A stretch of 64,000 nucleotides of DNA, taken from Candidatus Levybacteria bacterium RIFCSPHIGHO2_02_FULL_40_18 (GTDB lineage Bacteria > Patescibacteriota > Microgenomatia > Levybacterales > GWA1-39-11). The notes under the pieces were generated by a model. The model ran no database searches. It was given only the letters and a program-made list of their open reading frames with translations, and was not told the DNA's origin. The DNA is taken from assembly GCA_001782235.1 (NCBI GenBank), contig MFOC01000007.1, positions 86,799 to 150,798 on the forward strand, in the 5' to 3' direction. The position numbers were made by a program, and so were the translations under genes. This document shows positions 8,962 through 52,325 of this stretch, piece by piece (position 1 is the first letter of the stretch; each line of letters begins with the position of its first letter).

Positions 8962-9999
8962 TTACAGAAGGTTTTGCTGATTTTGTTTTTTCGACAACCT
9001 CGAACCAAGATGTTTATACGCTTCTCCTGTTGCGACGCGGCCGCTTTTTGTCCTTTTGAGAAACCCGATCTGAAGTAGATATGGTTCGACAATCTCTTCA
9101 ATTGTGCCGACGTCTTCTGCTAAAGATGCTGCGATTGTTTCAACTCCAACCGGTCCTCCGCCGTGCTTTTCAATAATGCTTTTAAGATAGCGCTTATCAA
9201 GCGCATCTAATCCTCGCGAATCTACCTCAATTAGCCCAAGTGCTTTTTCGACAAGGTCCAAAGTGATCTCGCCTTTTCCGTGAACCTGCGCATAGTCGCG
9301 GGCGCGTTTTAAAAGTCGAAGAGCGATTCGAGGAGTTCCACGAGCTCTCTTTGCGATTTCAGAAATTGATTTTTTATCGATTTTAACTTTAAGTTTTTTT
9401 GCAGCTTTCACAATAATTTCCTCAAGATCGGAAGGATTATAAAAAACCATCCGATGTACAACACCAAAGCGATCGCGAAGTGGACCTGAGAGCATACCGG
9501 CGCGGGTTGTTGCGCCAACAATCGTGAAGCGTGGCAGATCAAGACGAACAGTCCGAGCTGATGGTCCCTTGCCAAGAACAATATCGAGCGCATATTCTTC
9601 CATCGCTGGATAGAGCGTTTCTTCAACAACTTTATTTAACCTGTGAATTTCGTCTATAAACAGGACGTCTCCGGACTCAAGGTTCGTTAATATAGAAGCA
9701 AGGTCCCCAGCGCGCTCAATTGCGGGGCCTGATGTCACGCGAATATTTGATCCCATTTCTTTTGCAATTAGGTGAGAGAGAGTAGTTTTCCCTAAACCGG
9801 GCGGCCCATATAGTAAAATATGTTCGAGCGCCTCATTTCTTTTTTGAGCAGCATTTATGGCAATTTGAATTGACTTTTTAACAGACTCCTGCCCCACAAA
9901 ATCTCGCCATTCAGAGACCCTAAGAGATGTAAAAATTATTTCTTCTTCAGGTGTTGTTTCTTTCTCAACAATCGAGCCCTTTTGTTTAGATTTGGCCAT
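8962..9999 (-). CDS. ruvB: Holliday junction branch-migration helicase RuvB
   Basis: Walker [27 protein letters not shown] motif, RuvB C-terminal winged helix. Confidence 0.9.
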
Positions 10000-10009
10000 A
10001 TTTAATAAG

Positions 10010-10135
10010 ATATTAGTTGTTAGAAATTAGAAAATGGTTATGGAAATTAGATGTTGGAAATTGGTTTTGGTTCAACTATTTTCCATTTCCCACTTTCTAT
10101 TACTATTTTCTATTCTCTAGTGGCTATTTTCCTAA
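10010..10135 (-). repeat. Word-repeat palindromic leader element, copy A, immediately 5' of ruvB
   Basis: TAGAAATTAG/GAAAATGG/GGAAATTAG words followed by CTATTTTC/CCATTTCC words. Its 3' part ATCTAATTTCCATAAC...TAATTTCTAACAACTAAT is nearly identical to the nrdR leader (copy G). Confidence 0.6.
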
Positions 10136-10693
10136 ATATTTAAGTGCTGCCTTTATTTGCTCTTCAACGCTTGTAGCGCGATCAGTATTCCTTATTGCTT
10201 CATTTATTTCTTTTGTAGTAAATCCAAATGCTTTAAGGGCAGATACGAGTTCGTTTCTTTCTCCATTTGAAACTCCTGCCAAATCAAGTTCTCTACCGCC
10301 CACTTTATTTTTAAGTTCGATTATTATTTTTTGTGCATTTTTTGTCCCGAGTCTTGGAATTCCTGAGAAGAAAGTAACGTCAGCATCTATTATTGCCTTA
10401 GTAATTTCATCGCCTGTACCATTTGAAAAAATTGCAATCGCGGTCCTTGGGCCAACTCCCGGAACAGTGATAATTAATTCGAACAATTTAAGATCTGAAT
10501 ATTTTGAAAACCCGTAAAGCTCCAAGACATCCTCTCGAACATGAGTATATATGAATAATTTCAAATTCGAACCAATCGAAATAGAGGAGAGAACATCCGA
10601 GGCCGCATGAGTTTTATATCCAACTCCATTAACATCAATTATTAAATATGGATCATCCCGAATTATTGCAGAACCAGAAAGGTAACCTATCAT
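10124..10693 (-). CDS. ruvA: Holliday junction DNA-binding protein RuvA
   Basis: MIGYLSG...VNGVGYKTHAA N-terminus; HhH motif LITVPGVGPRTAIAI. Confidence 0.85.
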   Translation of the reverse strand: MIGYLSGSAIIRDDPYLIIDVNGVGYKTHAASDVLSSISIGSNLKLFIYTHVREDVLELYGFSKYSDLKLFELIITVPGVGPRTAIAIFSNGTGDEITKAIIDADVTFFSGIPRLGTKNAQKIIIELKNKVGGRELDLAGVSNGERNELVSALKAFGFTTKEINEAIRNTDRATSVEEQIKAALKYLGK

Positions 10694-10729
10694 GAAGCAA
10701 CTCGATTATACCACAGGATTTTTGTATGT

Positions 10730-11215
10730 TTATGCTGAGCGAAGTCGAAGCGAAAATGCGCAGGTAATGGCGCAGGCGAGAGCATCGACTGTATCGTCTG
10801 GTTTTGGTATCGAAGGCAAATTCAAAAGCATTTTTACCATTTTCCCCATCTGATCTTTTTGCGCCCTACCATATCCTGTTATTGCTGTTTTTACCTGGAG
10901 CGGGGTATAGGAAAAAACTTCCAGTCCCAAATCGGCTGCCGTTACTATTACAACTCCTCTTGCTTGCCCAACGATTAATGCTGTCTTTGCGTTCGTATTA
11001 AAAAACAATTCCTCAACCGAAAGCGCTTGAGGTTTGTGTTCTTTGATAATTCGAACAAGCTCCTCGCGAATTATTTGCAAACGACGCTCAATAGGTAAAT
11101 CGGCTCTTGTCTCAATACAACCAAAGCTTTTGGCTGTTAGCTTTTGGCTGTTATCTTTTTCGACGATGCCCCATCCGGTACGGGCAATCCCCGGATCCAC
11201 CCCCAAAATTATCAT
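10730..11215 (-). CDS. ruvC: Crossover junction endodeoxyribonuclease RuvC
   Basis: MIILGVDPGIARTGWGIVE N-terminus with RNase H-like fold motifs. Order ruvC-ruvA-ruvB. Confidence 0.85.
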   Translation of the reverse strand: MIILGVDPGIARTGWGIVEKDNSQKLTAKSFGCIETRADLPIERRLQIIREELVRIIKEHKPQALSVEELFFNTNAKTALIVGQARGVVIVTAADLGLEVFSYTPLQVKTAITGYGRAQKDQMGKMVKMLLNLPSIPKPDDTVDALACAITCAFSLRLRSA

Positions 11216-11249
11216 ATTGGTTATAAGATTATATACGATTGTAGATTAT

Positions 11250-11714
11250 TTAAAGTGTGTTGATTGTAATTTTTCCGATTTTTTTAGGAAGCCGCCGATC
11301 TAGAGTGATAAAAATGCCCGCACCGGATTCAAGCGCTGAAGCAAGATGAATAGCATCAGGAGTTCGAACACTTGGAAAATTTGCTCTTATCCAGGCGGCT
11401 CGGCGAGCAACGTTTCTGTCAATATCTTTAACCGTGAATAATCCTCCCCCAGTAATAAATTCTTCATAATAACCAATATCTTTTGAAAAATCATCTTTAT
11501 AAAAGTAGACCAAAAATTCCTCAAAAACCAGCGCTGAGATAAAAACCTGGGGGCTTGCCTGCTTAATTTCTTCTAAAATTCTTTGCGCTTTTTCCCCCAG
11601 TGGATTAGGTTTGGTGTATGCGTTGAATGCGGAAATAAATATATTACTATCAAGTGCTAAAATTTGCGAGGGCAAAATTCGATTACTCATCCCATGAACT
11701 TCTTTCTTCTTCAA
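11250..11714 (-). CDS. PIN-domain toxin (VapC-like). The probable true start is the internal Met at about 11693.
   Basis: ILALDSNIFISAF acidic-residue PIN start; conserved D/E positions. Confidence 0.65.
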   Translation of the reverse strand: MKKKEVHGMSNRILPSQILALDSNIFISAFNAYTKPNPLGEKAQRILEEIKQASPQVFISALVFEEFLVYFYKDDFSKDIGYYEEFITGGGLFTVKDIDRNVARRAAWIRANFPSVRTPDAIHLASALESGAGIFITLDRRLPKKIGKITINTL

Positions 11715-11931
11715 GATATTTTAGAGGATCTACCCCTTTCCAGGGGTTTTTTAGCTTCTTATAGTAATCCTGGGGCCAGTTGAGTTTTTCTTCAAGGGTA
11801 GGGCGGGTTAATATAATCTGCTCTCCTGCCACGTGAACATTCATCTTCTGGCCGGGTTTAATATTGGCTTTCTTCCGTATCTCTTTTGGAATTACTATTT
11901 GATATTTTGTACTAACAAGTGTTTGATTCAT
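11683..11931 (-). CDS. AbrB/MazE/SpoVT-family antitoxin (VapB-like). Start chosen at the internal Met MNQTL.
   Basis: TKYQIVIPKEIRKKANIKPGQKMNV swapped-hairpin motif. Lies upstream of and overlapping the PIN gene. Confidence 0.6.
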   Translation of the reverse strand: MNQTLVSTKYQIVIPKEIRKKANIKPGQKMNVHVAGEQIILTRPTLEEKLNWPQDYYKKLKNPWKGVDPLKYLEEERSSWDE

Positions 11932-12002
11932 AATCGTATTACATTTTACATAATCGTAAAACAAAAGTCAACCCCAAAAATTATCATGCAGACTATTATC
12001 GC

Positions 12003-20764: not shown

Positions 20765-22981
20765 TTATAAACAAAAATTTGCCGCAGTATCAATAGGTTT
20801 TCTTCCTCCTGTTCCGAGAGAGGCAAACTCAAAATGAACATGATTACAATTGGGATTGTTTGTACAAATTTTGGCCCCAACATCCCCTGATTTTCCCTCT
20901 GAAGTGCCGCTTCCCTGGTCTACATGATGGAATCTAAGCCAGTAGAGCTTACTGGAAGGGCTTGTTCCTCTATACTCTATTATATAACCGACGCCGCTAT
21001 TAGTCCTATCTTCGGAAAGTAGTATCCAGTCAAGAATCTCCCCATCAATTTTTGGAAAATACACATTTTGCCCAGGAGGGCCGGGTATGTCTTCTGCGTA
21101 GTGTATATCTTCATATATGCATAGTTCGGGCGCAGGATAGTTGAGGCCGCAATGCCCGCATTCGCTTCTTGGTGTGAACTCGCTTCCGCAGGAAACAGTA
21201 GATGCAGTTGCTCCCGGAATCGGGCATGTAGCTGAAAACAATGGCCCTGAGGGTGGTGCAACTTCGATCAGCGCGCCATAAGACCCTGCCGGAACAAGTT
21301 TTTCATACCAAAATCTTATATTCGGAGGGAAGTTTGGATTTTGTGCGAATGTACAAGGCGCATCATGCCCGTCACTGTACCTACACATAAAATCAGCAAA
21401 TCTATCATTTGATAAAAAACCGAAACTAATAAAAACACAAGCGAGGCTTTTATTAATATCATCATTTTGCTGACCCGGTGCGCACCCAAGTGGGTCTGCG
21501 GCAGGCACCCCTTGCGCCCCCGACTCCTCAATCCATAGAGCAAGAAGAAACGCAGGATTCCATCCGTTTGCAACTGCCTGCGACACAATGGTATCCCAAT
21601 TGCCAATCTTTGCATCGGGCCAGTTAGCAGTGATTTGTCCGCGAATATCTTGCGGGATTACGTTTGGGTCACGAAAGGGTATAGAGTAGTTAAGTCCTGC
21701 CGCCTGTTGTCCTCCATCTCCAGGGCCGGTCCCCTGACCCCCTCCTCCCCCGCCTCCAAGACCAAGGCTGGGAGCAAAATTGCCTGGGTTAAATATAATA
21801 ATGAATAATGCAAGAGCAAAAATTACAAGAAGACCAATTCCTGCCCATCCGATAGGCGTGAGTTTTGCGAAAAAGCCAAGCGGCTGTGTTGCTGTTTGTT
21901 CAACTATTCGTCCCGCTGTTTGGACATTGCTTAACAAAGATGGGAGTTTGTTAATCCGATCCACTAAGCCCCTTCCAAGCCTTGATCCCGGAGCGCTTCT
22001 TATAGGCGTAGTGCCTATAGGTTTCTCAAGCGGAATATATAATTTATGGGGAGGGACAGCAGGTTTTATGGCTTCAAGTCTTTTTGTTGCTTCCGAAACC
22101 GATATTTTTGGAGCCTCGCGCTTAGCCTTTTCTACGTACTTTATTTCTTTCCCCGTGCTCTCTTGGAAAGACCGAAGACTTCTTTGAATACTCTCTCTTT
22201 CGACGGTTCTCCGTATATCATTATTGCTTGCTTGGTAAGCGCTAGATTTAGTAGGGTATTGCTTTGCAAACCTATCCCACTCCCGACTCTTGATCTTCTT
22301 TTCAATCTCGTCCCAATTCTCTTCGAGCTTTCCCGCTTCAAAAAGAGCTTTTCTTGCCTTAATGTGCTCGTCTATATTGCTCTTCGCTCGATTAACAGCG
22401 GGATCTTCATCAAGGGTTTTATAAATCTTTTTTGCGCGCTCGTCATAATATGCTGCCCGGCTTTTGTTTTTTTCGCGAAATTGTCTCTCGGCATCGCTAC
22501 GAAGCGTTGGAGCATCTGGGTTGTCCAAATTGCCATAGCGATAATCTAACCATTCGTGGCTCTCAGAGGTCTTCCCGGGATTATTTTTCTGCCACTCTTT
22601 TGCTAAATTCTCCTCTATTTTTTTAAACTTAGGGTCATCCTCCAATAGATCTGGCCGCCGCCGGATAAAGAAAAGAGGAGACGCTAGAAGTCCTGCAAAA
22701 TTTGCAAAACCCCCCTGCCCTCGAGCGGTTTCTTGTGGAGCTTCAGGTTCTTGCGTGGGTATTGTTGAAATAGCCTCAAGGATTTGACTTCCTATCCAAA
22801 TACGTTCTAGTTTGTTTGGATCAACGCTCAGGTCATTTGCGCGAAGATATGCCGCCAGTTCTGCGCGAGTTTTAAAAGGAGGTACGCGGTTTTCTTTTAG
22901 ATACTCATTTGTTTCTATTGCATAGCTTTGAGCGCGCTCACGGTTATTCTTTATAAATTTTGAAATATTGTCCATTGGCAA
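20765..22981 (-). CDS. Membrane-anchored bifunctional peptidoglycan hydrolase: lytic transglycosylase (SLT) plus M23 peptidase. Functional analogue of VirB1/CwlT/PrgK.
   Basis: TM helix, Gly-rich linker, SLT catalytic ALWIEESGAQG. M23 signature SGDVGAKICTNNPNCNHVHFEFASLGTGGRKPIDTAANF. Confidence 0.75.
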   Translation of the reverse strand: MPMDNISKFIKNNRERAQSYAIETNEYLKENRVPPFKTRAELAAYLRANDLSVDPNKLERIWIGSQILEAISTIPTQEPEAPQETARGQGGFANFAGLLASPLFFIRRRPDLLEDDPKFKKIEENLAKEWQKNNPGKTSESHEWLDYRYGNLDNPDAPTLRSDAERQFREKNKSRAAYYDERAKKIYKTLDEDPAVNRAKSNIDEHIKARKALFEAGKLEENWDEIEKKIKSREWDRFAKQYPTKSSAYQASNNDIRRTVERESIQRSLRSFQESTGKEIKYVEKAKREAPKISVSEATKRLEAIKPAVPPHKLYIPLEKPIGTTPIRSAPGSRLGRGLVDRINKLPSLLSNVQTAGRIVEQTATQPLGFFAKLTPIGWAGIGLLVIFALALFIIIFNPGNFAPSLGLGGGGGGGQGTGPGDGGQQAAGLNYSIPFRDPNVIPQDIRGQITANWPDAKIGNWDTIVSQAVANGWNPAFLLALWIEESGAQGVPAADPLGCAPGQQNDDINKSLACVFISFGFLSNDRFADFMCRYSDGHDAPCTFAQNPNFPPNIRFWYEKLVPAGSYGALIEVAPPSGPLFSATCPIPGATASTVSCGSEFTPRSECGHCGLNYPAPELCIYEDIHYAEDIPGPPGQNVYFPKIDGEILDWILLSEDRTNSGVGYIIEYRGTSPSSKLYWLRFHHVDQGSGTSEGKSGDVGAKICTNNPNCNHVHFEFASLGTGGRKPIDTAANFCL

Positions 22982-22991
22982 GACAAGCTAT

Positions 22992-25049: not shown

Positions 25050-25057
25050 AATTTATT

Positions 25058-25170
25058 TAATTCAAAACTCAAAAGTCAAAAGTTAAAAATTAAAGTTAAA
25101 ATTTAAAAGTGTTTTTAATACTTTTTACTTTTGAATTGCAATTTTGAATTTTGCATTTTGACTTTTAACT
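25058..25170. repeat. AT-rich mirror/inverted word repeat: AAAAGTCAAAAGTTAAAA words, then after about 25112 their complements ACTTTTGA/TTTTGACTTTTAAC
   Basis: Read directly. Potential long imperfect hairpin between the two VirB4 ORFs. Confidence 0.55.
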
Positions 25171-25845
25171 TTACAATATTACATTCTTAATATCATTCGA
25201 ATCAAAATCCAAAGTAATAAACTCCTGATTGAATAGTTCATAGTAAAGCTTTATAAGCTCATTAGTTGAAAGTGGTCGAGCAGAGAGTCCCATTCTCTCA
25301 ACTTGCGTAGTAACATTGTTTCTTTTTGAAATAAGCGCTGATTTTACCCTCTCATTTAATGCCAGGTTTTTTTTGTCCGTTGTTTTCGCTTGTGCAGCAG
25401 AGGCTACCCCAAGCTCCAGTTGAGAAAACGGGATTACAATATAAATCTTTTTGTCTAAAAGTCCCTCACCCTTTATCAGATCTTTTATAAAATCTCTATA
25501 TAATGTTAATTGTTCCTTGACCTTAGGGTTTTGGATTCCTGCTATTTTATCCTCGATTAGTTTTATGTAACTGACAAGATCTACGCGCCGTGAGACAATC
25601 AATATTTGAATAGATGAAGAGAGAGAATTAAGAAGAGACATGTAGCCATAGATTCTTGCGTTTTGTTCATCTTGTGAGAGAAGGAAAAAATTAACGGACG
25701 AAACTTCCATAATCATACAAGCATTGCCGCCTTTTAAGAAGACAATATCGTCCTGGATGTCAACAATCTCAGTAAAATCTTGCGTGCTTGAGTGAATCTT
25801 TGACTTAGCCATAATCGATATAGAAATTGGTTGTAGGATTTCCAT
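25171..25845 (-). CDS. VirB4 N-terminal domain (CagE_TrbE_VirB N-terminal region) encoded as a separate ORF
   Basis: STQDFTEIVDIQDDIVFLKGGNACMIMEVSSVNFFLLSQDEQNARIYGYMSLLNSL...IQILIVSRRVDL resembles the N-terminus of TcpF/PrgJ-type VirB4. Confidence 0.6.
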   Translation of the reverse strand: MEILQPISISIMAKSKIHSSTQDFTEIVDIQDDIVFLKGGNACMIMEVSSVNFFLLSQDEQNARIYGYMSLLNSLSSSIQILIVSRRVDLVSYIKLIEDKIAGIQNPKVKEQLTLYRDFIKDLIKGEGLLDKKIYIVIPFSQLELGVASAAQAKTTDKKNLALNERVKSALISKRNNVTTQVERMGLSARPLSTNELIKLYYELFNQEFITLDFDSNDIKNVIL

Positions 25846-25880
25846 TACTAATTTCCATTTTCCAATAACTATTTTCTAGT

Positions 25881-26954: not shown

Positions 26955-27195
26955 AATAACGATTTTCGCTGATTTTTTAGCTGATTTACGCCGATCTGCG
27001 GCAATCCGCCATTAATCCGCGAGAATCCTATAGCTGATAGATCAAAATGACCAATAGGTCTATCTATTAGTTATTAAGACTCTTCCGTATAAACAGGTTA
27101 CTATGTGAAAATTCTGAATGCAAGATTATCAAAATATGTCAGAACCGCGTCAGACGCGGTCAGACTAGAGGAAAATTAAAGCTTTCTCGTGAAAA

Positions 27196-31545: not shown

Positions 31546-31553
31546 AGTATTAT

Positions 31554-32698: not shown

Positions 32699-33034
32699 CT
32701 ATGGATTAACAACTGTTTTAACACCAAACGCGCCTGCTACGAGATTTACAAAGACAAGCGCCAATGACATAACTATTAATCCAAATATCGCATAGATAAC
32801 TATTCTTCTTGCTTTATCCCATTTTTGCTTGTCCCCGGACGCTTGTAGCCAATAAAAACCCCCATAAACAATATAGAATAGAGAAAGAAAAATTCCAATA
32901 ATTAGCGCTAGTTGAATGAAAAAAGATGCAATATTGCCTATTGTAAATTGAGGTCCGGTAGGAATACCGGGAGGCGCCTCAATATCAACTTGGCCTCCGC
33001 CTGAACCCGGTACTTTTAATGATAAATATCTCAT
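32699..33034 (-). CDS. T4SS pilin-like protein, paralog 3
   Basis: TM-ASGDKQKWDKAR-TM. Confidence 0.65.
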   Translation of the reverse strand: MRYLSLKVPGSGGGQVDIEAPPGIPTGPQFTIGNIASFFIQLALIIGIFLSLFYIVYGGFYWLQASGDKQKWDKARRIVIYAIFGLIVMSLALVFVNLVAGAFGVKTVVNP

Positions 33035-33171
33035 ATTAGAAATTGGTTATTAATAATTAGAAAATAGTTCAGAAATTAGAAATTAGAAATTGGTTCTTGA
33101 TTTTTAACTATTTTCTATTCTCTATTTTCCATTACCATTTTCCATTCTCCTATAACTATTTTCTAATATAT
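33035..33171 (-). repeat. Word-repeat palindromic leader element, copy B, 5' of the pilin paralog-3 gene
   Basis: ATTAGAAATTGGTTATTAATAATTAGAAAATAGTT... then CTATTTTCTATTCTCTATTTTCCATTACCATTTTCC. It contains a 29-bp segment (33084-33112) that is a perfect inverted copy of 34648-34676. Confidence 0.6.
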
Positions 33172-34569: not shown

Positions 34570-34723
34570 CCGCTAGAAATTAGTTATTAATAATTAGAAA
34601 ATAGTTGTTGGAAAATGGAAATTAGTAATGGAAAATAGAGAATAGAAAATAGTTAAAAATCAAGAACCAATTTCTAGTTTCTAATTTCCGAACCATTCTC
34701 TAATTTCCCATAACTACTTTCTG
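34570..34723 (-). repeat. Word-repeat palindromic leader element, copy C, 5' of the large pilin-domain gene
   Basis: GCTAGAAATTAGTTATTAATAATTAGAAAATAGTT... (30-mer near-identical to the start of copy B), then GGAAAATGG/GAAAATAG words, then CTAATTTC words. Confidence 0.6.
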
Positions 34724-36040: not shown

Positions 36041-36103
36041 AGAAAATAGAAAATAGTTATTAGAAAATAGACAATGGTTCGGAAATTAGAAAATAGAAAT
36101 TGG
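36041..36103 (-). repeat. Word-repeat leader element, copy D, 5' of the AAA+-wHTH gene
   Basis: AGAAAATAGAAAATAGTTATTAGAAAATAGACAATGGTTCGGAAATTAGAAAATAGAAATTGG. Confidence 0.55.
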
Positions 36104-36532
36104 TTAACGATCATGGTAATTCTTCCAAGATTTCTTAAGATTCGTTAGTTGCTTACAGGAGATTATATATAAATTTATGACTTCGTTGCAAAGTTTAGGA
36201 TCGACGTATTTACTATAAACATCTATGCATACTGATAAATGATTTATCATTTCGTAACATTCACCTATCGTATCATCTATATATTTACTCCATGCTTTTT
36301 TCTGATATCTTTTGGCAAACCCCTCAGCAAGTATGGCTGGTCCTGCTTTGCAACTACGTCTCATTTGATCAACAAGATCAAACTTCTCTTCCTTCGGTAG
36401 ATTAGTAATTATTTCCTTCAATACTGTGACCATTGCCTTATATAAATTTTGGTACACCTCAAGATCTTGAAAAGTTCTGATTGGCTTTTTCTTTCTATTT
36501 TCCATTTTCAAATATCTATTACCATTTTCCAC
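36104..36532 (-). CDS. Four-helix-bundle protein (23S rRNA intervening-sequence protein family). The probable true start is near 36505, because the first codons are built from leader-repeat words.
   Basis: FQDLEVYQNLYKAMVTVLKEIITNLPKEEKFDLVDQMRRSCKAGPAILAEGFAKRYQKKAWSKYIDDTIGECYEM matches the family pattern. Confidence 0.65.
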   Translation of the reverse strand: MENGNRYLKMENRKKKPIRTFQDLEVYQNLYKAMVTVLKEIITNLPKEEKFDLVDQMRRSCKAGPAILAEGFAKRYQKKAWSKYIDDTIGECYEMINHLSVCIDVYSKYVDPKLCNEVINLYIISCKQLTNLKKSWKNYHDR

Positions 36533-36560
36533 TTTCCTACAACCATTTACAATTATCAGA
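36488..36560 (-). repeat. Word-repeat leader element, copy E (CTATTTTCCATTTTC... on the plus strand), overlapping the annotated 5' end of the four-helix-bundle gene
   Basis: TTCTATTTTCCATTTTCAAATATCTATTACCATTTTCCACTTTCC. Confidence 0.5.
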
Positions 36561-36627
36561 CTTCTGTTACGCTGCTGTTAGGTTAATATCAAGTATCCTA
36601 AGCTATATTCTTGTAAACTTGCGCCAT

Positions 36628-39702: not shown

Positions 39703-39721
39703 AGCTTTTCTTGCTGTTCTT

Positions 39722-41335
39722 TTATCTAAAGACCCGTCTGAGAACAGCAGTAAGCCCTTTCTCACCCGCCAGTGGCATAGCGCCTTTTAGAGCTGCAAAA
39801 CCACCTCCAGCAGTTCCCCTAACAGTTCCTGTTATGACACCCAGTCCTCCTGCAACCGATCTTCCTATTGCTGCGGTGTACTTAAATTCGGGCGCTTTTA
39901 GAGCGTCCCTGACAATATTGACAACTTCAGGGGTCAAGAGAATTATTCCAAGACCAATTATTGACGCAAAGTTTGCTGGATCCAAAAAGTCTCCGGTAAG
40001 TGGTGGAACAAAAGGCGTTGTGCTTGGATCTTGTTTAGTAAAGCCACTCATAAAAGCCTTTCCAAAAAGAAACATGGCAATTGTTACCGGAAATACCGAG
40101 AGGTTTGATAATATTGATCTTATCCACGTTCCAAAACCAGATCTTCCCGGGATTAGCCCCGAGGCAATATAAAAGGGGGCAAGGACTACATTTATGAGGA
40201 CGTAGATATAGGATTTAATAAGTTGAAACCAAAGACGCAGGAGCGCTGCAAAAATTGCGATTATTATAATAAGGTACGTAACTGCACCTGCAAAAAATCC
40301 CAGAATTCTATTTCCAGACAGTTCATTCACCCCAAAACCTATTGCAAAACCTGCTACCGCCCCAGGGATCCCTCCGAAACTGCCAGCAGCCTTAGCTACT
40401 TTACCTAGCACTGAAGGTAGTCCACCTCCTGCGCCGCCCAACACGGTTCCAAAGATTCCGCCGACAATTCCTGCTAAAACATTCCCAAGAGTACCATCAA
40501 ATATAGATCGCACAATCCCTGAGATACTTTTAGCAACGCCTTCTGCAATTCCAGATATCCCCATGTCCTTTCCGGTGAGCGGGGCGCTGCCAAATCCTCC
40601 GGCTGCCGCAAAGGGGTTACTTGCCAACATACTTGTTGGGTCAATTCCTTGCTCGGCGAATATTGTCATAATTAAGTAGATTGAGACATACATAAGGTCC
40701 ACTAAAAACCCTGCGATTGCATAAGAGAAGGTAATCAAAACTAGAGCAATCACAATTTTTGGAATTTGATTTTGCATTGTCATAACGGTTCTGGGGTCAA
40801 TTTTTATTCTAAACATTATTCCAAGACCCACAATTATAAAAACAATTACAAAGAGAAGATAAGTCAAATTTCTAAAAGCCTGCCAGAGCTTAAGAGTGGG
40901 CGTAAGGGAATTAAAACCTAGGCTTCCCTCAGGTCCTTGCGCATATGTTTTTTTAACTATGCCAAAATTTGAAGCAACATAGCTTCCGTAATCATGAGTT
41001 GAGACAGGAATGTAAAAAGTTGCCGACATAAGATTTCCCAACATTCCAAGCGCTCCGCCTCCTCCCTCAACAAATCCTATTTTTCCAGTATTTGGATCTA
41101 TTCCAAGACACTTATTACCAGGATTGGCGGGATCAATTCCTGAGAGTTGACAAGAAGTTGCGGCGATAATTTCAATAAAGACGCTTTGGGTGTATGTATG
41201 GAAATTCTGCGGGACGTCCGGATTTGTGTTGAGGTAATTTGCATTAGGGTTTGGGAATTGAGCATTCGCGTTTGGTACAAAAATAAGGAACAATGAATAA
41301 AGAATAACGAATAAAGAGAGCAGTTTAAATATCAT
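39722..41335 (-). CDS. VirB6/TrbL-like polytopic inner-membrane T4SS component, with signal peptide and Gly-rich segments
   Basis: Signal peptide ...VPNANAQ, at least 7 TM helices, Gly-rich loops GGIFGTVLGGAGGGLPSVLG. Position and size typical of TcpH/PrgH/VirB6 analogues. Confidence 0.55.
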   Translation of the reverse strand: MIFKLLSLFVILYSLFLIFVPNANAQFPNPNANYLNTNPDVPQNFHTYTQSVFIEIIAATSCQLSGIDPANPGNKCLGIDPNTGKIGFVEGGGGALGMLGNLMSATFYIPVSTHDYGSYVASNFGIVKKTYAQGPEGSLGFNSLTPTLKLWQAFRNLTYLLFVIVFIIVGLGIMFRIKIDPRTVMTMQNQIPKIVIALVLITFSYAIAGFLVDLMYVSIYLIMTIFAEQGIDPTSMLASNPFAAAGGFGSAPLTGKDMGISGIAEGVAKSISGIVRSIFDGTLGNVLAGIVGGIFGTVLGGAGGGLPSVLGKVAKAAGSFGGIPGAVAGFAIGFGVNELSGNRILGFFAGAVTYLIIIIAIFAALLRLWFQLIKSYIYVLINVVLAPFYIASGLIPGRSGFGTWIRSILSNLSVFPVTIAMFLFGKAFMSGFTKQDPSTTPFVPPLTGDFLDPANFASIIGLGIILLTPEVVNIVRDALKAPEFKYTAAIGRSVAGGLGVITGTVRGTAGGGFAALKGAMPLAGEKGLTAVLRRVFR

Positions 41336-41344
41336 AATTGATTT

Positions 41345-41480
41345 TAGTATTTAGAAATTGGTTTTTGGACAATAGAAATTAGTAATAGAAAATAGAGAAT
41401 AGAAAATAGAAACAAATACTATTCTCCAAGTTCAAATTTCCATAACCATTTTCCAATTTCTTACAACTATTTTCTAATAA
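41345..41480 (-). repeat. Word-repeat palindromic leader element, copy F, 5' of the VirB6-like gene
   Basis: TAGAAATTGGTTTTTGGACAATAGAAATTAGTAATAGAAAATAGAGAATAGAAAATAG ... CCATAACCATTTTCCAATTTCTTACAACTATTTTCTAAT. Confidence 0.6.
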
Positions 41481-41719
41481 GTCTATTTTTAGTATGGGCT
41501 AAAAATATCGTAAATGTCAAATAGTTGGCTTGACCCCGCTAATCTTACCGTTCGCCTTTTTCCCGCCGATATTTTTCGGTCGGGATCCCGCACGAATGTA
41601 ATTCGTCGGGACAGTACTATTCGTACACGGCTCACGGAGCGATTTTAGAGGTGTCTTCTGTCGCTACGCTTCTTGACAATTGGTGTGGTTGGGGTTATTA
41701 TTATCAAAATCTTCATTAA

Positions 41720-42334
41720 ATGAAAAAAGTTGTCTTGGGATTACTGCTCCTGGCCCTCTTTTATTTAAGTACTCCTTCAAAAACACTTGCCCAAACTAAG
41801 CCTATACTTTCTCCTTCGCCCACGGAAGCCCTCATGTCAGAAGATAAACAAATGGAGAAAGAAAAAGAAGCCACGCAAAGTTCGCAGCCTGAGATAGATG
41901 AGTACCCGTTGCCCTATCCTGGAATCTTACCTGACAATCCGTTGCATTTTCTAAAGGCTCTCCGAGACAGGATAATTTTAATGCTAATGTCAGATCCTGT
42001 AAAAGAAGCGGAGTTTAATCTTTTAACATCGGACAAAAGAATTTATGCGGCACAACTTTTAGCAGACAAGGGAAAAGGACAACTTTCAATTTCAACTCTT
42101 TCAAAAAGCAATAACTATTTCCATAATGCAGTATCAAGCGCCGGGGAAGCCAAAAAGATGGGGAAAGATATTGATACAGTTTTACATAATATGAAAAAGT
42201 CTATTGTTAAACACCAACTGGTGCTGCCTATGATGGAGAATGTGCTCTCAAAAGACTTTGCAAGCCAGCTTCGGGCAGAGGGTGCGAGAATGGTAGAATT
42301 TGAAAGATCCGTAGATAGCCTTATCCTGCAGTAA
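41720..42334 (+). CDS. Secreted hypothetical protein (signal peptide)
   Basis: MKKVVLGLLLLALFYLSTPSKTLAQ signal peptide. The sequence TTGACA-17 nt-TATTAT at 41676-41704 upstream is a possible promoter. Confidence 0.5.
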   Translation: MKKVVLGLLLLALFYLSTPSKTLAQTKPILSPSPTEALMSEDKQMEKEKEATQSSQPEIDEYPLPYPGILPDNPLHFLKALRDRIILMLMSDPVKEAEFNLLTSDKRIYAAQLLADKGKGQLSISTLSKSNNYFHNAVSSAGEAKKMGKDIDTVLHNMKKSIVKHQLVLPMMENVLSKDFASQLRAEGARMVEFERSVDSLILQ

Positions 42335-42482
42335 CAATCTAATTCCCTAGTTAGATCATTTTTTTTACACACAAAAACAAAGTGCCCAACTAATTTTTTC
42401 GTCCCATCCGCCAACCGGCGGACTATTACCGCAAAACGAGGCTAAAACATCGATTGCCATAGTTTGATATACAACTTGATAG

Positions 42483-42537
42483 TTGACACGGCTGATATAG
42501 TGTTCTACTATTTTAGTTGACACTATATCTAGTAGTT
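42483..42537 (+). promoter_or_regulatory. Putative nrdR/nrdJ promoter with two NrdR-box-like palindromes. TTGACA at 42483-42488, TACTAT at 42506-42511. Boxes at about 42494-42507 and 42520-42533.
   Basis: TGATATAGTGTTCT and ACACTATATCTAGT resemble the NrdR box consensus acaCwAtATaTwGtgt. Centre-to-centre spacing is about 27 bp. Confidence 0.45.
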
Positions 42538-42564
42538 TGCACCTTGAACAACCAGCCCAATTAA

Positions 42565-42690
42565 GCAGAAAATAGTTAATAGATAATAGAAAATAGTAAT
42601 GGAAGTTGGAAAATAGAAAATAGATTAAATACCAATTTCTAATATCTAATTTCCATAACTAATATCTAATTTCTAACAACTAATTTCTGT
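42565..42690 (+). repeat. Word-repeat palindromic leader element, copy G, 5' of nrdR
   Basis: CAGAAAATAGTTAATAGATAATAGAAAATAGTAATGGAAGTTGGAAAATAGAAAATAG ... ATCTAATTTCCATAACTAATATCTAATTTCTAACAACTAATTTCTG. Confidence 0.6.
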
Positions 42691-42706
42691 AATTTAGAAT
42701 TTAATT

Positions 42707-43156
42707 ATGCAGTGTCCTTATTGTAAAAGTGAAGATTCTGAAGTTGTTGAAACAAGGGTCTCGGATGATGGAACAAATATAAGGCGCAGAAGAAATTGCC
42801 TTTCATGCGGCAAGCGTTATACAACTTACGAGCGGATAGAAAACATCACTCTTATTGTCAAGAAAAAGGACGGAAGGCGCGAGCAATTTGATCGAGAGAA
42901 ACTTCGGCAAGGACTCATGAAAGCCTGCGAGAAGACAACGGTGTCACTTGATGCGATTAATAATATAGTAGACGAGGTTGAAAGAGAGTTAATATCTGGC
43001 GAGTCGGTTGAAATAGAAGCAAAGAAAATTGGTCAGATGGTTGCTCAAAAACTTAAGAAGCTTGACAAAGTAGCATACATAAGGTTTTCAAGCGTCTTCA
43101 AGAGATTCGTAGATCTTGAGGACTTTGAGAAAGAATTAAAAAAACTTATCAAATAA
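42707..43156 (+). CDS. nrdR: Transcriptional repressor NrdR
   Basis: Zinc ribbon MQCPYCKSEDSEVVETR...RRRNCLSCGKRYTTYERIE and ATP-cone domain. Confidence 0.9.
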   Translation: MQCPYCKSEDSEVVETRVSDDGTNIRRRRNCLSCGKRYTTYERIENITLIVKKKDGRREQFDREKLRQGLMKACEKTTVSLDAINNIVDEVERELISGESVEIEAKKIGQMVAQKLKKLDKVAYIRFSSVFKRFVDLEDFEKELKKLIK

Positions 43157-45673: not shown

Positions 45674-45856
45674 GTTAGCAATTAGCAATTAGTTTCAAAT
45701 AAGAGTATATATTTGGTAATCGCCGTGAAAGTCGGCGGAACTGCCGGTACTGTAATATCCAGAAAACAATATATACTTTCATCCCCGAGCAGGGTTAAGC
45801 GAAGAAGAATTCCTCTCGGGTTATCGAGAGGTTTTTTTGTGAGCAATAGTTGAACT
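45674..45856 (+). promoter_or_regulatory. Structured 5' leader upstream of the adenosyltransferase gene: hairpin CGCCGUGAAAGUCGGCG (45721-45737), then an intrinsic terminator immediately before the start codon
   Basis: Terminator stem CCUCUCG-GGUUAU-CGAGAGG followed by UUUUUUU. Architecture typical of a riboswitch or attenuator; class not identified. Confidence 0.4.
45812..45839 (+). terminator. Rho-independent terminator (7-bp GC-rich stem plus T7) about 18 nt upstream of the adenosyltransferase start codon
   Basis: cctctcgggttatcgagaggttttttt read directly. Confidence 0.6.
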
Positions 45857-47471: not shown

Positions 47472-48141
47472 TATTCTTTTTCCTAAGAAATGTATAAATT
47501 GTAAAAAATTTGGGGATTTTTTGTGTGCGGACTGTTTTGCCAAGATTAAATACAATGAATCATTTGAGCCAGTTTCAGGCGAATTAGATGGTGTGATATC
47601 GGCAGTTATTTATAATTCGATAATTCGAAAGTTAATCCGCCAATTCAAGTATAAACCGTACGTCTCAAAGCTTGCAGAAATAATTTCCGAGATTATGAAT
47701 GAGGGACTAGCACAAAATGAAGCTTTTTATAATTTCATCGAACAATTCGAGTCGGTTATTATCCCGATTCCATTAAGCCCAAGGCGCCTGCGCGAGCGCG
47801 GGTATAATCATGCGGAAATCCTAGCATCTTTTGTCGCAAAGTATTTCGATTTAAAAATAGAGCCTAAGATTTTAGTTCGCATTAAAGAAACAAAACCTCA
47901 GTTTAGATTAAATAAAGAGGAACGGAAGAAAAACGTCGAAGATGCGTTCTCGGTTCGCAAAGATCCTAAAACCCCCCTTCTGGGCCAGAGGCCCACCGGT
48001 CCGGCGGCAAACATCCCTAAAGCCGTAGTAATCATAGACGATCTTGCAACAAGTCTTGCGACTCTCAAAGAAGCCGCAAAAGTATTAAAAAGCGCAGGGG
48101 CAAAAAAAGTCCTCGGTGTCACCTTCGCGAGAGAGGTTTAA
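47457..48141 (+). CDS. ComF-family protein (phosphoribosyltransferase-like competence protein)
   Basis: N-terminal zinc finger CINCKKFGDFLCADC; C-terminal PRTase motif VVIIDDLATSLATL. Confidence 0.7.
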
Positions 48142-48461
48142 AGCATCGATAATGTCCTTTTTAAAGCTTCTTTAAATTGTCTTCTTCCAAAGCCGCTTTT
48201 GAGAAATTCTTCGCGGGCTTTAGCATCCTCTTCATTTATAAAATATTCGTAATAAATGAGCTTTACAGGTAGCCTGAATTTTGTAGCTTTAATTTCTCCT
48301 CTTGCATGTTTTGTTAATCTATTCTTTAGACTTGTCGTAAAGCCAATATATAAACCTTTATCTTTAAGGCTATGGAGGATATATACGTAGTATCTTTTTG
48401 AAACGTCAAACGTTTCTGACATAAAAATATATCTTTTGAGTGTCGCGTCCAACGCGATCAC
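48138..48461 (-). CDS. GIY-YIG nuclease family protein (UPF0213-like). The probable start is the internal Met near 48422.
   Basis: YYVYILHSLKDKGLYIGFTTSLKNRLTKH is the GIY-YIG signature. Confidence 0.7.
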   Translation of the reverse strand: MIALDATLKRYIFMSETFDVSKRYYVYILHSLKDKGLYIGFTTSLKNRLTKHARGEIKATKFRLPVKLIYYEYFINEEDAKAREEFLKSGFGRRQFKEALKRTLSML

Positions 48462-48499
48462 CTTACAAACGCTGCTTCGTGCGAAGCCGCGTTTGACGC

Positions 48500-48854
48500 G
48501 GTGGAGATGGGGGGCTTTGAGCCCCCGTCCAAAAAAGCATCTATAAAAACATCTACAAGCTTATTCAATTATTTATTGTCATCATGCAAACTCCAATTGA
48601 AAGGATTGAACATGACTAAGATTTAAATTGTTCGAACAAAATCTAAATCGGAACTTTGTCTATATCCAAACTTTGTTTATGCCCATATCTGATCGTTTGG
48701 AAAAATCTAGATATGAACACCAGTTTAAGCTACTGCGTAGCTGTAGGCCGGACTAACATTTCTGTTAGCATTTATTTTTGATACATTTTTACGATTAGTA
48801 TCATTATCGGCTTGCAGTTTTTAAAGAGCAATTCTGTCGATGCAATGCATCCCC
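48500..48854 (-). ncRNA. ssrA: tmRNA (ssrA), about 355 nt, CCA not fully encoded
   Basis: Acceptor stem GGGGAUG pairs with CAUCUCC. tRNA-like T-arm GGGGG-CUCAAAG-CCCCC at the 3' end. Internal tag ORF GCU AAC AGA AAU GUU AGU CCG GCC UAC AGC UAC GCA GUA GCU UAA gives ANRNVSPAYSYAVA then stop. Located immediately downstream of smpB. Confidence 0.65.
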
Positions 48855-48874: not shown

Positions 48875-49315
48875 CTAGAGGATGGTTTTCAACTCGCGCT
48901 CCTGTTCGCGCTCGATGGCCTCTCGACGCTTGTCGCGGCGCTTCTCGCGCTTGTTTTTGCTCTCAACTAAGGCCAGTTCAAGCTTAAAATTGCCGTCCTT
49001 AAGATATATTGACAAAGGAACAATCGTGAATTTTCCCTGGTCGAGCTTTGATTTTAAGGCCAGAATTTCCTTTTTGTGAAGCAAAAGTTTTCGTGTTCGG
49101 TCTTCTTGATAACCTTCAATCCGAGAAAATTCATAAGGGAAAATTTTTGCATTGATTAAGTTTGCTTCGCTTCCTGAAATTCGAACATAAGCCCCAGTGA
49201 TGTCGGCATGGCTAGCGCGAAGTGCTTTTACTTCGCTCCCGAGCAAAACAATCCCAGCCTCAATCTTTTCAAGAGGTTTATATGATTTTATAAAACGATT
49301 AACAATTCTCATCAA
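48875..49315 (-). CDS. smpB: SsrA-binding protein SmpB
   Basis: NRFIKSYKPLEKIEAGIVLLGSEVKALR...LLLHKKEILAL pattern; basic C-terminal tail. Confidence 0.9.
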   Translation of the reverse strand: MMRIVNRFIKSYKPLEKIEAGIVLLGSEVKALRASHADITGAYVRISGSEANLINAKIFPYEFSRIEGYQEDRTRKLLLHKKEILALKSKLDQGKFTIVPLSIYLKDGNFKLELALVESKNKREKRRDKRREAIEREQERELKTIL

Positions 49316-51295: not shown

Positions 51296-51298
51296 GCT

Positions 51299-51535
51299 CT
51301 ATAAGAATAGCACCGCAAAGAATAATAACGCAACTGTTGCCAGAAGATGTACGAGCGTAAAAACAATAAAGATGGGTGAGAATGTTATTTGATTTATAAT
51401 TCTGTTTAAATTCCTAATCTGTAAAAAAAGAATTAGTGCAAAAAGGCCGTATATAGAGATCAATATAATCAGAATGATTCTGAAAAGAGCATCCTGATTG
51501 GAAAAGATCTTAAGAAAAAAATTAAATATTTCCAT
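51299..51535 (-). CDS. Small two-TM membrane protein downstream of the bPH_2 gene
   Basis: ORF only; paired arrangement mirrored at 58923-59938. Confidence 0.3.
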   Translation of the reverse strand: MEIFNFFLKIFSNQDALFRIILIILISIYGLFALILFLQIRNLNRIINQITFSPIFIVFTLVHLLATVALLFFAVLFL

Positions 51536-51581
51536 AAATTAGAGATCCCGATTTTCATCGGGGTGATCTCATTTCGCCCGG

Positions 51582-52217
51582 TTACTTTAGTGGCTTTCTT
51601 CCTATCATCTCGGCAATAATTTGAACAATTCTGGCCGGTTCCGGCGCGCGGTCAAACTCAAAGTTTGCTTGAGTCGCCGCGGTTTGTACTAACACGTCCC
51701 CATAATTAAATACTGATCTTACAGCTCCGACTTGTGAGTAAGAAACGTCCTCGATAAGATTAATTTTTGTTTCACTGGCGTGCTTAAAAAGAATACCTGA
51801 AACATCAAGATCAATGATTCTTTTGTTAGTTACAAGACCTACATTAAAATACCAAATAGTAAACTCAACCAAAATGAATCCGGCCACAACAAGATAATAA
51901 AAAAGGACCGAAACTACTTGAGTTTGTATGGCAATCTGGAAAAAGGGAGAAAACAAATCGTTGAAAAGAAAAAGGAGCGGAGGAATAAAGATTAATATCA
52001 GAGCGGTAAGAATCCAAGGGACATTGGTTATGAGATCTCGTCTTACGAGAAGCATTATTTCTTCATCTCCCTCCTGATTTTCAAACACTACATTATCGGG
52101 ATTGATTCCAAGCGAGGAATAAAAGTGGACGGATTTTTTGTGGGAAGGTTCTGGTGTACCTTGCGGTATCCGTTCTGAAATAACGAATTCACCACTAAGA
52201 CCATTTTCCCCTGGCAT
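51582..52217 (-). CDS. Bacterial PH-domain (bPH_2/YdbS-like) membrane protein
   Basis: Two TM helices, then GLVTNKRIIDLDVSGILFKHASETKINLIEDVSYSQ...NYGDVLV. Confidence 0.6.
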   Translation of the reverse strand: MPGENGLSGEFVISERIPQGTPEPSHKKSVHFYSSLGINPDNVVFENQEGDEEIMLLVRRDLITNVPWILTALILIFIPPLLFLFNDLFSPFFQIAIQTQVVSVLFYYLVVAGFILVEFTIWYFNVGLVTNKRIIDLDVSGILFKHASETKINLIEDVSYSQVGAVRSVFNYGDVLVQTAATQANFEFDRAPEPARIVQIIAEMIGRKPLK

Positions 52218-52224
52218 AATGAGA

Positions 52225-52325
52225 TTATTATATCAGAAATAGAATAGCTAAATGGCTATAATGGTTAAAATAGTTCTGGCTCGAAAAACTATTCTAGCTT
52301 ATTCTAACTATTCAACTATTTGATC
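52225..52325 (-). repeat. Variant word-repeat palindromic leader, copy H, 5' of the bPH_2 gene
   Basis: GAAATAGAATAGCTAAATGGCTATAATGG...CTATTCTAGCTTATTCTAACTATTC. Confidence 0.4.

Follow-up and report, generated by a model that had tools for sequence, protein, structure and literature searches.

Heptad-repeat hairpins between genes of a Levybacterium, and the same arms around a PF05635 four-helix-bundle gene

Introduction

Long palindromic word repeats stand directly before several genes in a 64,000-nt stretch of DNA from Candidatus Levybacteria bacterium RIFCSPHIGHO2_02_FULL_40_18 (contig MFOC01000007.1, positions 86,799 to 150,798; hereafter the window), and the question that they raise is whether they control those genes or have come to lodge between them. 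The original prediction, made from the letters of the window, took them for regulatory leaders. We found five full copies and one truncated copy of an imperfect palindrome of ~125 nt, here called F1, together with one F1 cassette that bears an open reading frame (ORF). We establish that the copies are homologous, that F1 is spread across lineages, that it is present or absent at orthologous sites, that the cassette ORF lies in the loop between two F1 arms, and that genes of the family of this ORF, PF05635, as a rule stand between inverted heptad arrays whose words agree across the two arms of a cassette. The reading that we consider reasonably probable is that F1 is an insertion element, dispersed and in the course of time both gained and lost, and that it is the ORF-less form of a cassette that brackets a PF05635/TIGR02436 four-helix-bundle (4HB) gene. 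F1 looks like an element of this kind more than like a dedicated regulatory leader.

Results

F1 is a family of homologous palindromes built of heptads

The predicted hairpin-forming elements, in which purine-rich words are followed by pyrimidine-rich words, were confirmed at all five sites of full copies by pattern search, nhmmer and RNA folding (Table 1). The five copies score 76-88 bits in an nhmmer profile search of the window, and a 30-nt degenerate pattern derived from the copies matches the window seven times, where 100 shuffles give an expectation of 0.00. GAAAWTRG-type words, together with their complements, form eight clusters in all, at 10023-10131, 25823-25876, 33039-33163, 34576-34707, 36042-36103, 36495-36529, 41354-41474 and 42568-42687. 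The 3′ segment said to be common to the ruvB and nrdR copies is present, as is the ~30-mer said to be common to the pilin-3 and large-pilin copies.

The unit of the repeat is 7 nt, and not 8-9 nt as first described: in aligned copies a G recurs every 7 nt, with GAAAWTR heptads on the 5′ arm and YAWTTTC heptads on the 3′ arm. In a gene-sense alignment the 5′ arm comprises 8-9 heptads, with the consensus TAGAAAATAG TTATTG GAAAATAG AAAATAG TAAT AGAAATTAG AAAnTAG AAAATAG; a loop of 6-25 nt follows, and then a 3′ arm with the consensus CTAATTTC TAATTTC TATTTTC CATTAC nAATTTC nAATTTC TAACAAC TAATTTC. Two special units, GTTATTG and GTAAT, hold fixed positions across the copies. The palindrome also has a fine-scale polarity: of its two outer words, one is of the A type and the other of the T type. 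Most copies contain, within about 50 nt, a stop in each of the three frames of both strands.

As RNA, the full window copies fold with z-scores of -3.4 to -7.9 relative to dinucleotide shuffles, on both strands, and none of 200 shuffles folds as well. The RNAalifold consensus of 23 copies is one heptad out of register and contains only 14 pairs (-1.9 kcal/mol). At position 7 of the heptad A.C is frequent, and G-C pairs are under-represented. We rejected the idea that the sense-strand RNA is optimised by way of G.U pairs, as the opposite strand is the more stable (mean -35.1 versus -31.1 kcal/mol, p 0.03).

The elements fill their gaps almost exactly, several copies ending 0-17 nt before the next ATG, and the genes that flank them lie on the minus strand throughout, nrdR excepted. 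The copy described as upstream of ruvB does abut that gene (ATG at 9997-9999), but it is not purely upstream, since its first word, GGAAAATAG, is made of the last two codons of ruvA and their stop (GGA AAA TAG; stop at 10124-10126). The earlier list was also incomplete. A truncated F1 copy at 25813-25880, between the stop of a PrgI-like gene and the start of a TraC-like gene, overlaps the called start at 25845, and a weak hairpin (F3) lies at 25050-25170; no remnant hairpin was seen upstream of prgI in the window. Conversely, the hairpin before the bPH_2 gene (F2), counted earlier as a variant, is another family, because it has no match to the F1 profile by nhmmer and resembles the ruvA-ruvB hairpin of a related locus (L128; loci from other genomes are given by L numbers). 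Save for this local likeness, neither F2 nor F3 has relatives among the loci compared.

F1 is dispersed across lineages of the candidate phyla radiation

The 30-nt pattern matches more than 116 loci in GTDB species representatives. By our own estimate ~70 chance matches are expected in 596 Gb, and many of the single matches are probably chance; in genomes outside the candidate phyla radiation (CPR), many are probably chance or tandem GAAAATA runs. About 21 full-length copies were found elsewhere, in metagenome-assembled genomes (MAGs) labelled Saccharibacteria, Levy-, Curtiss-, Nealson-, Moran- and Parcubacteria, some labelled otherwise, and F1 identity across those lineages is ~75%. An alignment of 23 copies from ~20 MAGs of several CPR lineages has a mean column identity of 71% and a fixed word order. 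No Rfam family matches F1. The idea of a 4HB gene beside every pattern match was rejected, jackhmmer having found 4HB ORFs at just 5 of 116 pattern loci.

Copies are always intergenic, lying 0-50 nt from the flanking ORFs, in either orientation and beside unrelated neighbours, which include ruvB, pilin genes and nrdR and, in another genome, carA. Outside the window, in ~20 other CPR genomes, about 7 copies are sense and 10 antisense with respect to the gene that follows, and 2 are flanked by convergent genes. Some are nested: one (L059) has another hairpin in its loop, and three (L013, L113 and L061) lie inside the loops of other word-hairpins. The flanks of 27 copies merely continue the A-rich sequence upstream and the T-rich sequence downstream.

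Random placement and orientation had been named beforehand as the observation that would speak against a regulatory leader, and outside the window that is what we observed. The claim that the copies share one polarity holds in part: at the level of words it is trivial for a palindrome, and at the fine scale all five scorable window copies are sense, but copies elsewhere are not.

F1 is present or absent at orthologous sites

At the ruvA-ruvB junction, L126, whose RuvA is 86% identical to that of the window, has an empty spacer of 24 nt, and L129 (77%) has F1. In L128 (78%) the spacer holds a short hairpin and in L127 (82%) another, each of different words: AAATAGC-type words at L128 10574-10632 and words of the GAGATGAGAA type at L127 3074-3175. 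The ruvA-ruvB gap looks like a hotspot at which heptad hairpins are acquired or remodelled time and again.

A second comparison covers the locus of the cassette. L222, which is on the contig of L129, keeps the gene order of the window (a VirB6-like gene, a 1010-aa gene, the 4HB gene, a gene for an AAA+ winged helix-turn-helix (wHTH) protein, and pilin genes); its 4HB protein is 85% identical to that of the window and its 5′ arm is of the F1 type. Three sites that are occupied in the window are free of the element in L222. Where the window has the copy at 34570-34723, the wHTH-to-pilin spacer of L222 is 53 nt long; where it has the copy at 33035-33171, the pilin-to-pilin junction reads TAAATTATG, with a spacer of 3 nt; and the promoter region upstream of the VirB6-like gene lacks the equivalent of the copy at 41345-41480. 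The 3′ arm of the cassette measures 23 nt in L222, as against 63 nt in the window. Because L222 keeps its genes without three of the copies, the F1 copies can be dispensed with, and the wHTH regulator is retained even where the operators proposed for it are missing.

The presence/absence polymorphism expected of a miniature inverted-repeat transposable element (MITE) is thus seen at the ruvA-ruvB site, empty in L126, and at the three sites empty in L222. The view that the repeats are a regulatory leader rather than a MITE is contradicted by the unrelated neighbours, by the mixed orientation in ~20 CPR genomes and by the dispensable sites.

One F1 copy carries a four-helix-bundle gene in its loop

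The blocks at 36041-36103 and 36488-36560 had been read as the leaders of two genes. Matches to the F1 profile identify 36041-36103 and 36479-36575 as the 3′ and 5′ arms of one F1 copy, which brackets the 4HB ORF. The segments 36045-36071 and 36494-36520 pair, and the minimum free energy fold of 36041-36575 pairs the outer arms. The protein linked to the repeats is the 4HB protein encoded inside one copy, and not the AAA+-wHTH protein.

The ORF matches PF05635 (E 3e-15, 56.8 bits, cut-off 33.8) and TIGR02436 (48.8 bits, cut-off 24); a match to Avd is weak (NF033474, E 6e-4, 20 bits, far under the 80-bit cut-off). The AlphaFold model is a four-helix bundle with a pLDDT of 91, and its best fold matches are 2GSC, 2RLD and the Avd of 8UBE, the last with a TM-score of 0.63 normalised to the query and 0.74 normalised to the target. 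Since 30 homologues begin MENxxxKPI, translation probably starts at the ATG at 36505, in the last heptads of the arm, and the GTG-start extension MENGNRYLK is probably spurious. Of the earlier remark that repeat words enter the N-terminus, it therefore stands that the start codon lies in the arm, but probably not that the extension is translated. The stop codon of the gene abuts the 3′ arm, and a promoter-like site (36581->36552, minus strand) lies at the outer edge of the 5′ arm.

The subfamily of the window protein has 545 members at E<=1e-10; identity is 65-75% among the Levybacteria window and records that bear the names Microgenomates and Saccharimonadales. Members with F1 arms occupy differing loci: L222; L223, between a PfkB kinase gene and a dehydrogenase gene; L225b, in a pilin locus; and L099. 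A single pilin locus, L225, carries two 4HB subfamilies, at 1165-1533 and 3001-3405, with arm words of the GCGTCTAG type and the F1 type, respectively; the pair is a natural test case for specificity between protein and arm.

PF05635 genes are generally bracketed by inverted heptad arrays

The same layout is general. Inverted heptad arrays generally stand on both sides of PF05635 genes, in CPR as in cyanobacteria, Bacteroidota and Acidobacteria; in CPR they take the form (N4TAG)n upstream and (CTAN4)n downstream. We scanned metagenomes with a query built from three close sequences of a 4HB subfamily other than that of the window, and obtained 80 loci. Flanking inverted repeats with z>4 accompany 55 of 69 metagenomic 4HB ORFs. 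The commonest upstream trinucleotide is TAG, at a spacing of 7 (154 times) or 8 (43 times), and CTA behaves likewise downstream. Arrays of at least three TAG occur in 49 of 66 upstream regions but in just 1 of 189 control windows. Cassettes vary in the changeable part of the word, which agrees across both arms of any one cassette; the median complementarity of arms is 14.5 within a cassette versus 8 between cassettes (p 5e-19), and arm words track the similarity of the 4HB proteins.

Many unrelated housekeeping genes have a metagenomic cassette upstream of them; the upstream neighbour shares the strand of the cassette in 88% of cases and the downstream neighbour in 85%. The cassette 3′ arms end 3-8 nt before the next ATG. 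Cassettes also recur directly upstream of prgI-like genes.

Arrays in cyanobacteria and Bacteroidota use words without TAG. A PF05635 cassette on plasmid pNPUN01 of Nostoc punctiforme (NPUN_RS33770) has GGAGTCA words, and one in Riemerella has AAGGTTC words. On a plasmid of Picosynechococcus sp. PCC 7003 (L220 1195-1551), an annotated 4HB gene (AWQ21_RS15215) flanked by inverted arrays of GGAGATA heptads sits in a type III-B CRISPR operon, between cas10/cmr2 and cmr3; the presence of such genes inside cas operons had been remarked on in a previous survey (PMC3936711). The literature that we searched contains no account of heptad arms around PF05635 genes, of this CPR element, or of MITE-like elements in Patescibacteria.

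Sequence constraint and other points against an insertion element

Several results weigh against reading F1 as an insertion element, among them the way in which its sequence is conserved. Covariation was tested on the 23 copies in a hand-built full-length register, the one register that aligns both special units. Paired cells make up 77.4% in this register, as against 80.7% in shuffles, and the covariation among copies that had been proposed as a check was absent from the arms (0.084 versus 0.108 in shuffles, with the observed value reached by 500 of 500). Heptad position 5 is a conserved A.A/U.U mismatch, 16-21 of the 23 copies being unpaired at each of six such positions; together with those at position 7, the mismatches lend the element its fine-scale polarity. 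Conserved mismatches and pairing below the control would be unexpected if stem formation alone mattered; the arms of F1 are conserved as sequence, not as pairing. Furthermore, the identity between copies within a genome (74%) equals that between genomes (75%), and variation is confined to heptad positions 5 and 7. This pattern of identity and variation looks like purifying selection on the sequence and not like the neutral decay of selfish copies, and makes it likely that F1 serves its host or has to satisfy strict demands of recognition.

Other points bear on mobility itself. No target-site duplication was seen in 27 copies, a search that the AT-rich context and fuzzy ends of the element limit. 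The window contains no transposase, integrase, reverse transcriptase, HUH or Nop-domain gene. Five pattern matches on viral contigs include no full F1 element. The ruvA-ruvB copy is common to two species, those of the window and L129, whose RuvA proteins are 77% identical, and the five scorable copies of the window, as noted above, share the sense orientation.

Transcription context and other features of the window

The coordinates of the elements are collected in Table 1.

Table 1 F1 copies, the F1 cassette and other heptad hairpins in the window
Feature	Coordinates	Strand	Context and evidence
F1, ORF-less copy	10000..10135	-	Fills ruvA-ruvB gap; nhmmer 10008-10132, 85.5 bits; fold z -4.3 / -4.5
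F3, inverted heptad array, CAAAAGT-type words	25050..25170	-	TraC-like stop to VirB4-like start; weak RNA fold, z -1.45
F1, truncated copy	25813..25880	-	5′ heptads 1-6 and short 3′ remnant; profile E 5.5e-6
F1, ORF-less copy	33035..33171	-	Between large pilin stop (33172) and pilin-3 ATG (33034); nhmmer, RNA fold
F1, ORF-less copy, nearly symmetric	34570..34723	-	AAA+-wHTH stop to large pilin ATG; 86.5 bits on both strands
F1, 3′ arm of ORF-bearing copy	36041..36103	-	Begins right after 4HB stop, ends at wHTH ATG (36040)
4HB gene, 133 aa, PF05635 23S_rRNA_IVP / TIGR02436	36104..36505	-	In F1 hairpin loop
F1, 5′ arm of ORF-bearing copy	36479..36575	-	Last heptads contain 4HB start codon
F1, ORF-less copy	41345..41480	-	Immediately upstream of VirB6-like ATG (41335); nhmmer, RNA fold
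F1, ORF-less copy	42565..42690	+	nrdR leader; nrdR ATG 42707; fold z -7.3
F2, heptad-type hairpin, not F1	52218..52328	-	Between SpoIID-like and bPH_2 genes; fold z -2.8

A Shine-Dalgarno (SD)-like motif precedes just 4 of the 42 long ORFs of the window, and many ORFs have TATAAT 7-12 nt before the ATG. This combination suggests a wide use of leaderless mRNAs in this Levybacterium. TATAAT-like -10 boxes are exemplified by the ATGs at 12262, 14125, 6545, 60035 and 19152 on the plus strand and at 52217, 10693 and 11215 on the minus strand.

A promoter-like site (41520->41491) lies upstream of the VirB6-like copy, and the nrdR copy lies between promoter-like sites with palindromic boxes (42454-42540) and the nrdR start, which would place both copies in 5′ leaders. 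The other copies lie between co-directional genes. It is very probable that F1 copies lie in transcripts, and a consequence for RNA processing remains plausible for that reason. The suggestion that the repeats are an RNA processing or stability element survives to this extent; against a regulatory leader stand the lack of covariation and a sense-strand RNA that is on average the less stable. No terminator-like site was found at any element in a scan of 32600-42800, and we rejected an intrinsic terminator, in which a short G+C-rich stem precedes a U tract, the F1 stems being A/U-rich with periodic mismatches.

Several features adjoin these copies. The region at 42454-42540 holds two TTGACA-containing promoter-like sites with ACACTATAT/ATATAGTGT boxes that resemble NrdR boxes, and nrdR would be autoregulated if that is what they are. 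At 42673-42700 the conserved CTAACA of the F1 3′ arm is followed by TAGAAT after 16-17 nt and by ATG 6-7 nt further on, a promoter-like arrangement that recurs beside an unrelated gene in another Levybacterium (L034, minus strand, 3′ of the F1 copy at 1944-2064); it may be that F1 provides a -35 box directed outwards. Between the VirB6-like element and a divergent gene at 41720, a relatively G+C-rich, structured intergenic stretch (41495-41665; RNA z -3.3) overlaps promoter-like sites of both divergent genes and has no Rfam match at E<=1; it could be an unannotated small RNA or leader.

Most F1 copies cluster in a locus resembling those of type IV secretion systems (T4SS) and conjugation (20765-36040 and 54372-56789), which encodes a VirB4-like ATPase, TraC-like and PrgI-like proteins and four T4SS pilins, with a TrwB/TraG-like coupling protein gene further off; the locus lies beside dnaA-dnaN. 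Elsewhere, a MazE-antitoxin and PIN-domain pair (11250-11964, minus strand) stands upstream of ruvC, on the strand of ruvC-ruvA-ruvB, and is absent from the syntenic region of L127, L128 and L129. An AdoCbl-II riboswitch (45704-45777, plus strand; 39.8 bits, above the gathering score) lies between the genes for a ribonucleotide reductase and a PduO-type cobalamin adenosyltransferase. A tmRNA gene (48499-48854, minus strand) is directly downstream of smpB (48875-49315, minus strand), with a small GIY-YIG ORF adjacent (48138-48461).

Discussion

F1 resembles several known repeats and differs from each. The closest likeness is to the intervening sequences (IVSs) of 23S rRNA in Leptospira and Coxiella, in which terminal inverted repeats form a stem with the S23p ORF in its loop, a hairpin tetraloop is replaced, and the insert is cut out by RNase III (PMC4990558). 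As in an IVS, a PF05635 ORF lies in the loop of a long stem with complementary termini that extends or replaces a hairpin loop; the distribution is sporadic, selfish or horizontal movement is suspected, and ORF-less hairpins exist. Unlike IVSs, F1 lies between protein-coding genes or in mRNA leaders and not in rRNA helices 9, 25 or 45; the window has no rRNA, so F1 does not qualify as an IVS by its place in an rRNA helix. The F1 arms, moreover, are 7-nt arrays with conserved mismatches, and there are many ORF-less copies per genome. With the REPIN-RAYT system (PMC3116915) F1 shares dispersed intergenic hairpins of ~100 bp and one gene flanked by the same repeats in inverted orientation. That gene, however, is here a 133-aa 4HB gene with a match to PF05635 only, and not a Y1/HUH transposase (RAYT, PF01797), and the F1 arms are heptad arrays of 55-60 nt in place of the 20-40-nt palindromes of REPINs.

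Enterobacterial repetitive intergenic consensus sequences (ERIC, or intergenic repeat units, IRU) and Correia elements (NEMIS) are imperfect palindromes of 100-150 bp, found in transcribed intergenic regions of operons in either orientation, that fold in the mRNA; Correia elements are targets of RNase III. F1 is an intergenic imperfect palindrome of similar size in transcribed regions, likewise in either orientation, but it has no sequence relation to these elements, shows no TA duplication or integration host factor (IHF) site, and differs in its heptad periodicity, its ORF-bearing partner and its distribution across CPR lineages. Short tandemly repeated repetitive (STRR) heptamers are intergenic repeats of cyanobacteria. 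Direct TAACTGA repeats occur between genes in Beggiatoaceae, cyanobacteria and Bacteroidetes (PMC4679880). F1 is like both in its 7-nt period, in its stops in all three frames, in abutting start codons that lack a ribosome-binding site, in occasionally overlapping the end of the upstream ORF, and in its phylogenetic scatter. Those arrays are direct and tandem, whereas the F1 and 4HB arrays are paired, inverted, hairpin-forming and linked to a specific protein family. Finally, the window 4HB protein has the fold of Avd, the accessory protein of diversity-generating retroelements (DGRs), and a weak sequence match to it. Avd forms a positively charged barrel of five subunits in contact with structured RNA (bioRxiv 10.1101/2023.10.23.563531), the RNA in question surrounding its own gene. 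The window, in contrast to a DGR, has no reverse transcriptase, template repeat or variable repeat.

Other classes were considered and set aside. A MITE with a transposase partner does not fit, since the partner with the same arms encodes a PF05635 protein and the window has no transposase. Integron attC sites have R″/R′ cores (RYYYAAC...GTTRRRY), one orientation behind cassette ORFs and an integrase close by. The F1 consensus lacks such cores, the nearest sequences being TTCTAAC and GTTATTG; F1 also occurs in both orientations and between core genes of conserved synteny, with no integrase in the window. TIGR arrays are made of tandem units of ~36 nt with two variable spacers and box C/D-like repeats, with a Nop-domain Tas gene nearby (PMC12045711); in F1 the period is 7 nt, variable spacers are lacking and the sequence is conserved from genome to genome, and the window has no Nop-domain gene. 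A structured cis-regulatory RNA of the Rfam kind is disfavoured by the lack of covariation, the mixed orientation and the lack of an Rfam match.

Four other explanations of F1 have to be weighed. One, in our view unlikely, is a domesticated riboregulator: the heptad arrays would bind the oligomeric 4HB protein in trans, and binding to the (UAG-N4)n 5′ arm would block or promote the hairpin and so tune translation, processing or read-through of the downstream gene, in the manner of HutP or of TRAP with triplet repeats. Arm positions constrained by sequence rather than by pairing, and the equality of within-genome and between-genome identity, would be expected of such a binding site. The window, moreover, has one 4HB gene with the same arms, the two subfamilies of L225 have different arm words that track protein similarity, and all five window copies are sense. 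The spacing of UAG in HutP sites is consistent with a period of 7, and the structural relative Avd offers a barrel that contacts structured RNA within a ribonucleoprotein. On the other hand, copies elsewhere are antisense as often as sense, the genes that would be served (ruvB, pilins, nrdR, carA) are unrelated, the orthologous genes of L222 do without F1, and the cyanobacterial and Bacteroidota words lack TAG. We give rather little credence to an intercistronic processing signal that benefits the host, in which an RNase III-like cut at the hairpin base would provide internal cistrons, and genes with long leaders such as nrdR, with a 5′-terminal AUG. It would account for elements that end 0-17 nt before start codons, and for cassette 3′ arms that end 3-8 nt before the next ATG, in a genome with few SD-like motifs and many -10 boxes close to the ATG; a signal that works in either orientation fits the lack of orientation bias, and the stems of rRNA IVSs are RNase III substrates (PMC4990558). 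Against this, empty orthologous sites work without the element, some copies lie between convergent genes, and the stems, rich in A and U, are mismatched at every seventh base pair.

Growth in place, by slippage of heptamers in replication and homogenisation of the palindrome without transfer between sites, is improbable as an account of F1. Heptamers are the commonest long simple repeats in bacteria and have been ascribed to slippage (PMC4679880); arm length varies between orthologues (63 versus 23 nt), relatives have differing word families at the same ruvA-ruvB site, and the boundaries are fuzzy, with no target-site duplication found. Yet F1 copies at unrelated sites and in different CPR lineages share a complex, non-repetitive word order, special units at fixed positions, polarity-specific mismatches and 71-90% identity, and local growth cannot produce F1 because of that shared word order. 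For the hairpins F2 and F3, growth in place could still be the explanation. Least credible, and largely refuted, is the operator array or cis-regulatory leader for the AAA+ winged-helix (Trans_reg_C) regulator that the original prediction had put forward. The gene for this regulator (34724-36040) does lie between two copies, and several copies are in the pilin/T4SS-like locus. Operators of the OmpR/PhoB type have a period of about 10-11 bp, however, and that of F1 is 7 nt; F1 also stands beside unrelated genes in many CPR lineages and, in the window, at ruvA-ruvB and nrdR, and L222 retains the regulator without three of the sites.

If F1 is a dispersed insertion element, its ORF-less copies would relate to the 4HB cassette as REPINs do to the RAYT gene, or as MITEs do to an autonomous element, and F1 would amount to an rRNA IVS-like unit transplanted into mRNA. 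It would be gained and lost in intergenic gaps, typically spanning exactly the distance from a stop codon to the next start. Insertion between cistrons would cost little, since the element has stops in all frames and a stem that closes on itself and sets the flanking stop next to the flanking start, and such a design would be tolerable within the operons of a nearly SD-free genome with apparently leaderless mRNAs. In the transcript the hairpin may be cut out by RNase III, as rRNA IVSs are, and an oligomer of the 4HB protein may recognise the heptad arrays. The constraint on each heptad, the equal identities within and between genomes, the conserved mismatches, and the match between words and 4HB subfamilies suggest that some factor recognises the arrays, the 4HB protein being the most economical candidate.

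A wider reading is tentative and in our view unlikely: PF05635 proteins and inverted heptad arrays would form a widespread two-part element that has so far gone unrecognised. The protein oligomer may recognise its own 7-nt-periodic arrays as RNA or as single-stranded DNA, and may drive the spread, maintenance or processing of ORF-less hairpins. Such an element may unite rRNA IVSs, the intergenic hairpins of CPR and the heptamer repeats of cyanobacteria and others, and in CPR with leaderless mRNAs the cutting of polycistronic transcripts near start codons may be a task for which the hairpins were recruited.

The mobility of IVSs and the role of their ORF have been questions about the '23S rRNA IVS protein' family since 1993. 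The ORF-in-hairpin architecture is found here in intergenic gaps of mRNA, and one 4HB subfamily has left many ORF-less copies across CPR lineages. For annotation, F1 explains a class of 'gaps' and of spurious N-terminal extensions in CPR genomes. Binding of the arrays by the 4HB protein, excision of the hairpin from mRNA and spread without a recognisable transposase become testable questions, and the architecture has carriers in culture, in Nostoc punctiforme, Picosynechococcus PCC 7003 and Riemerella.

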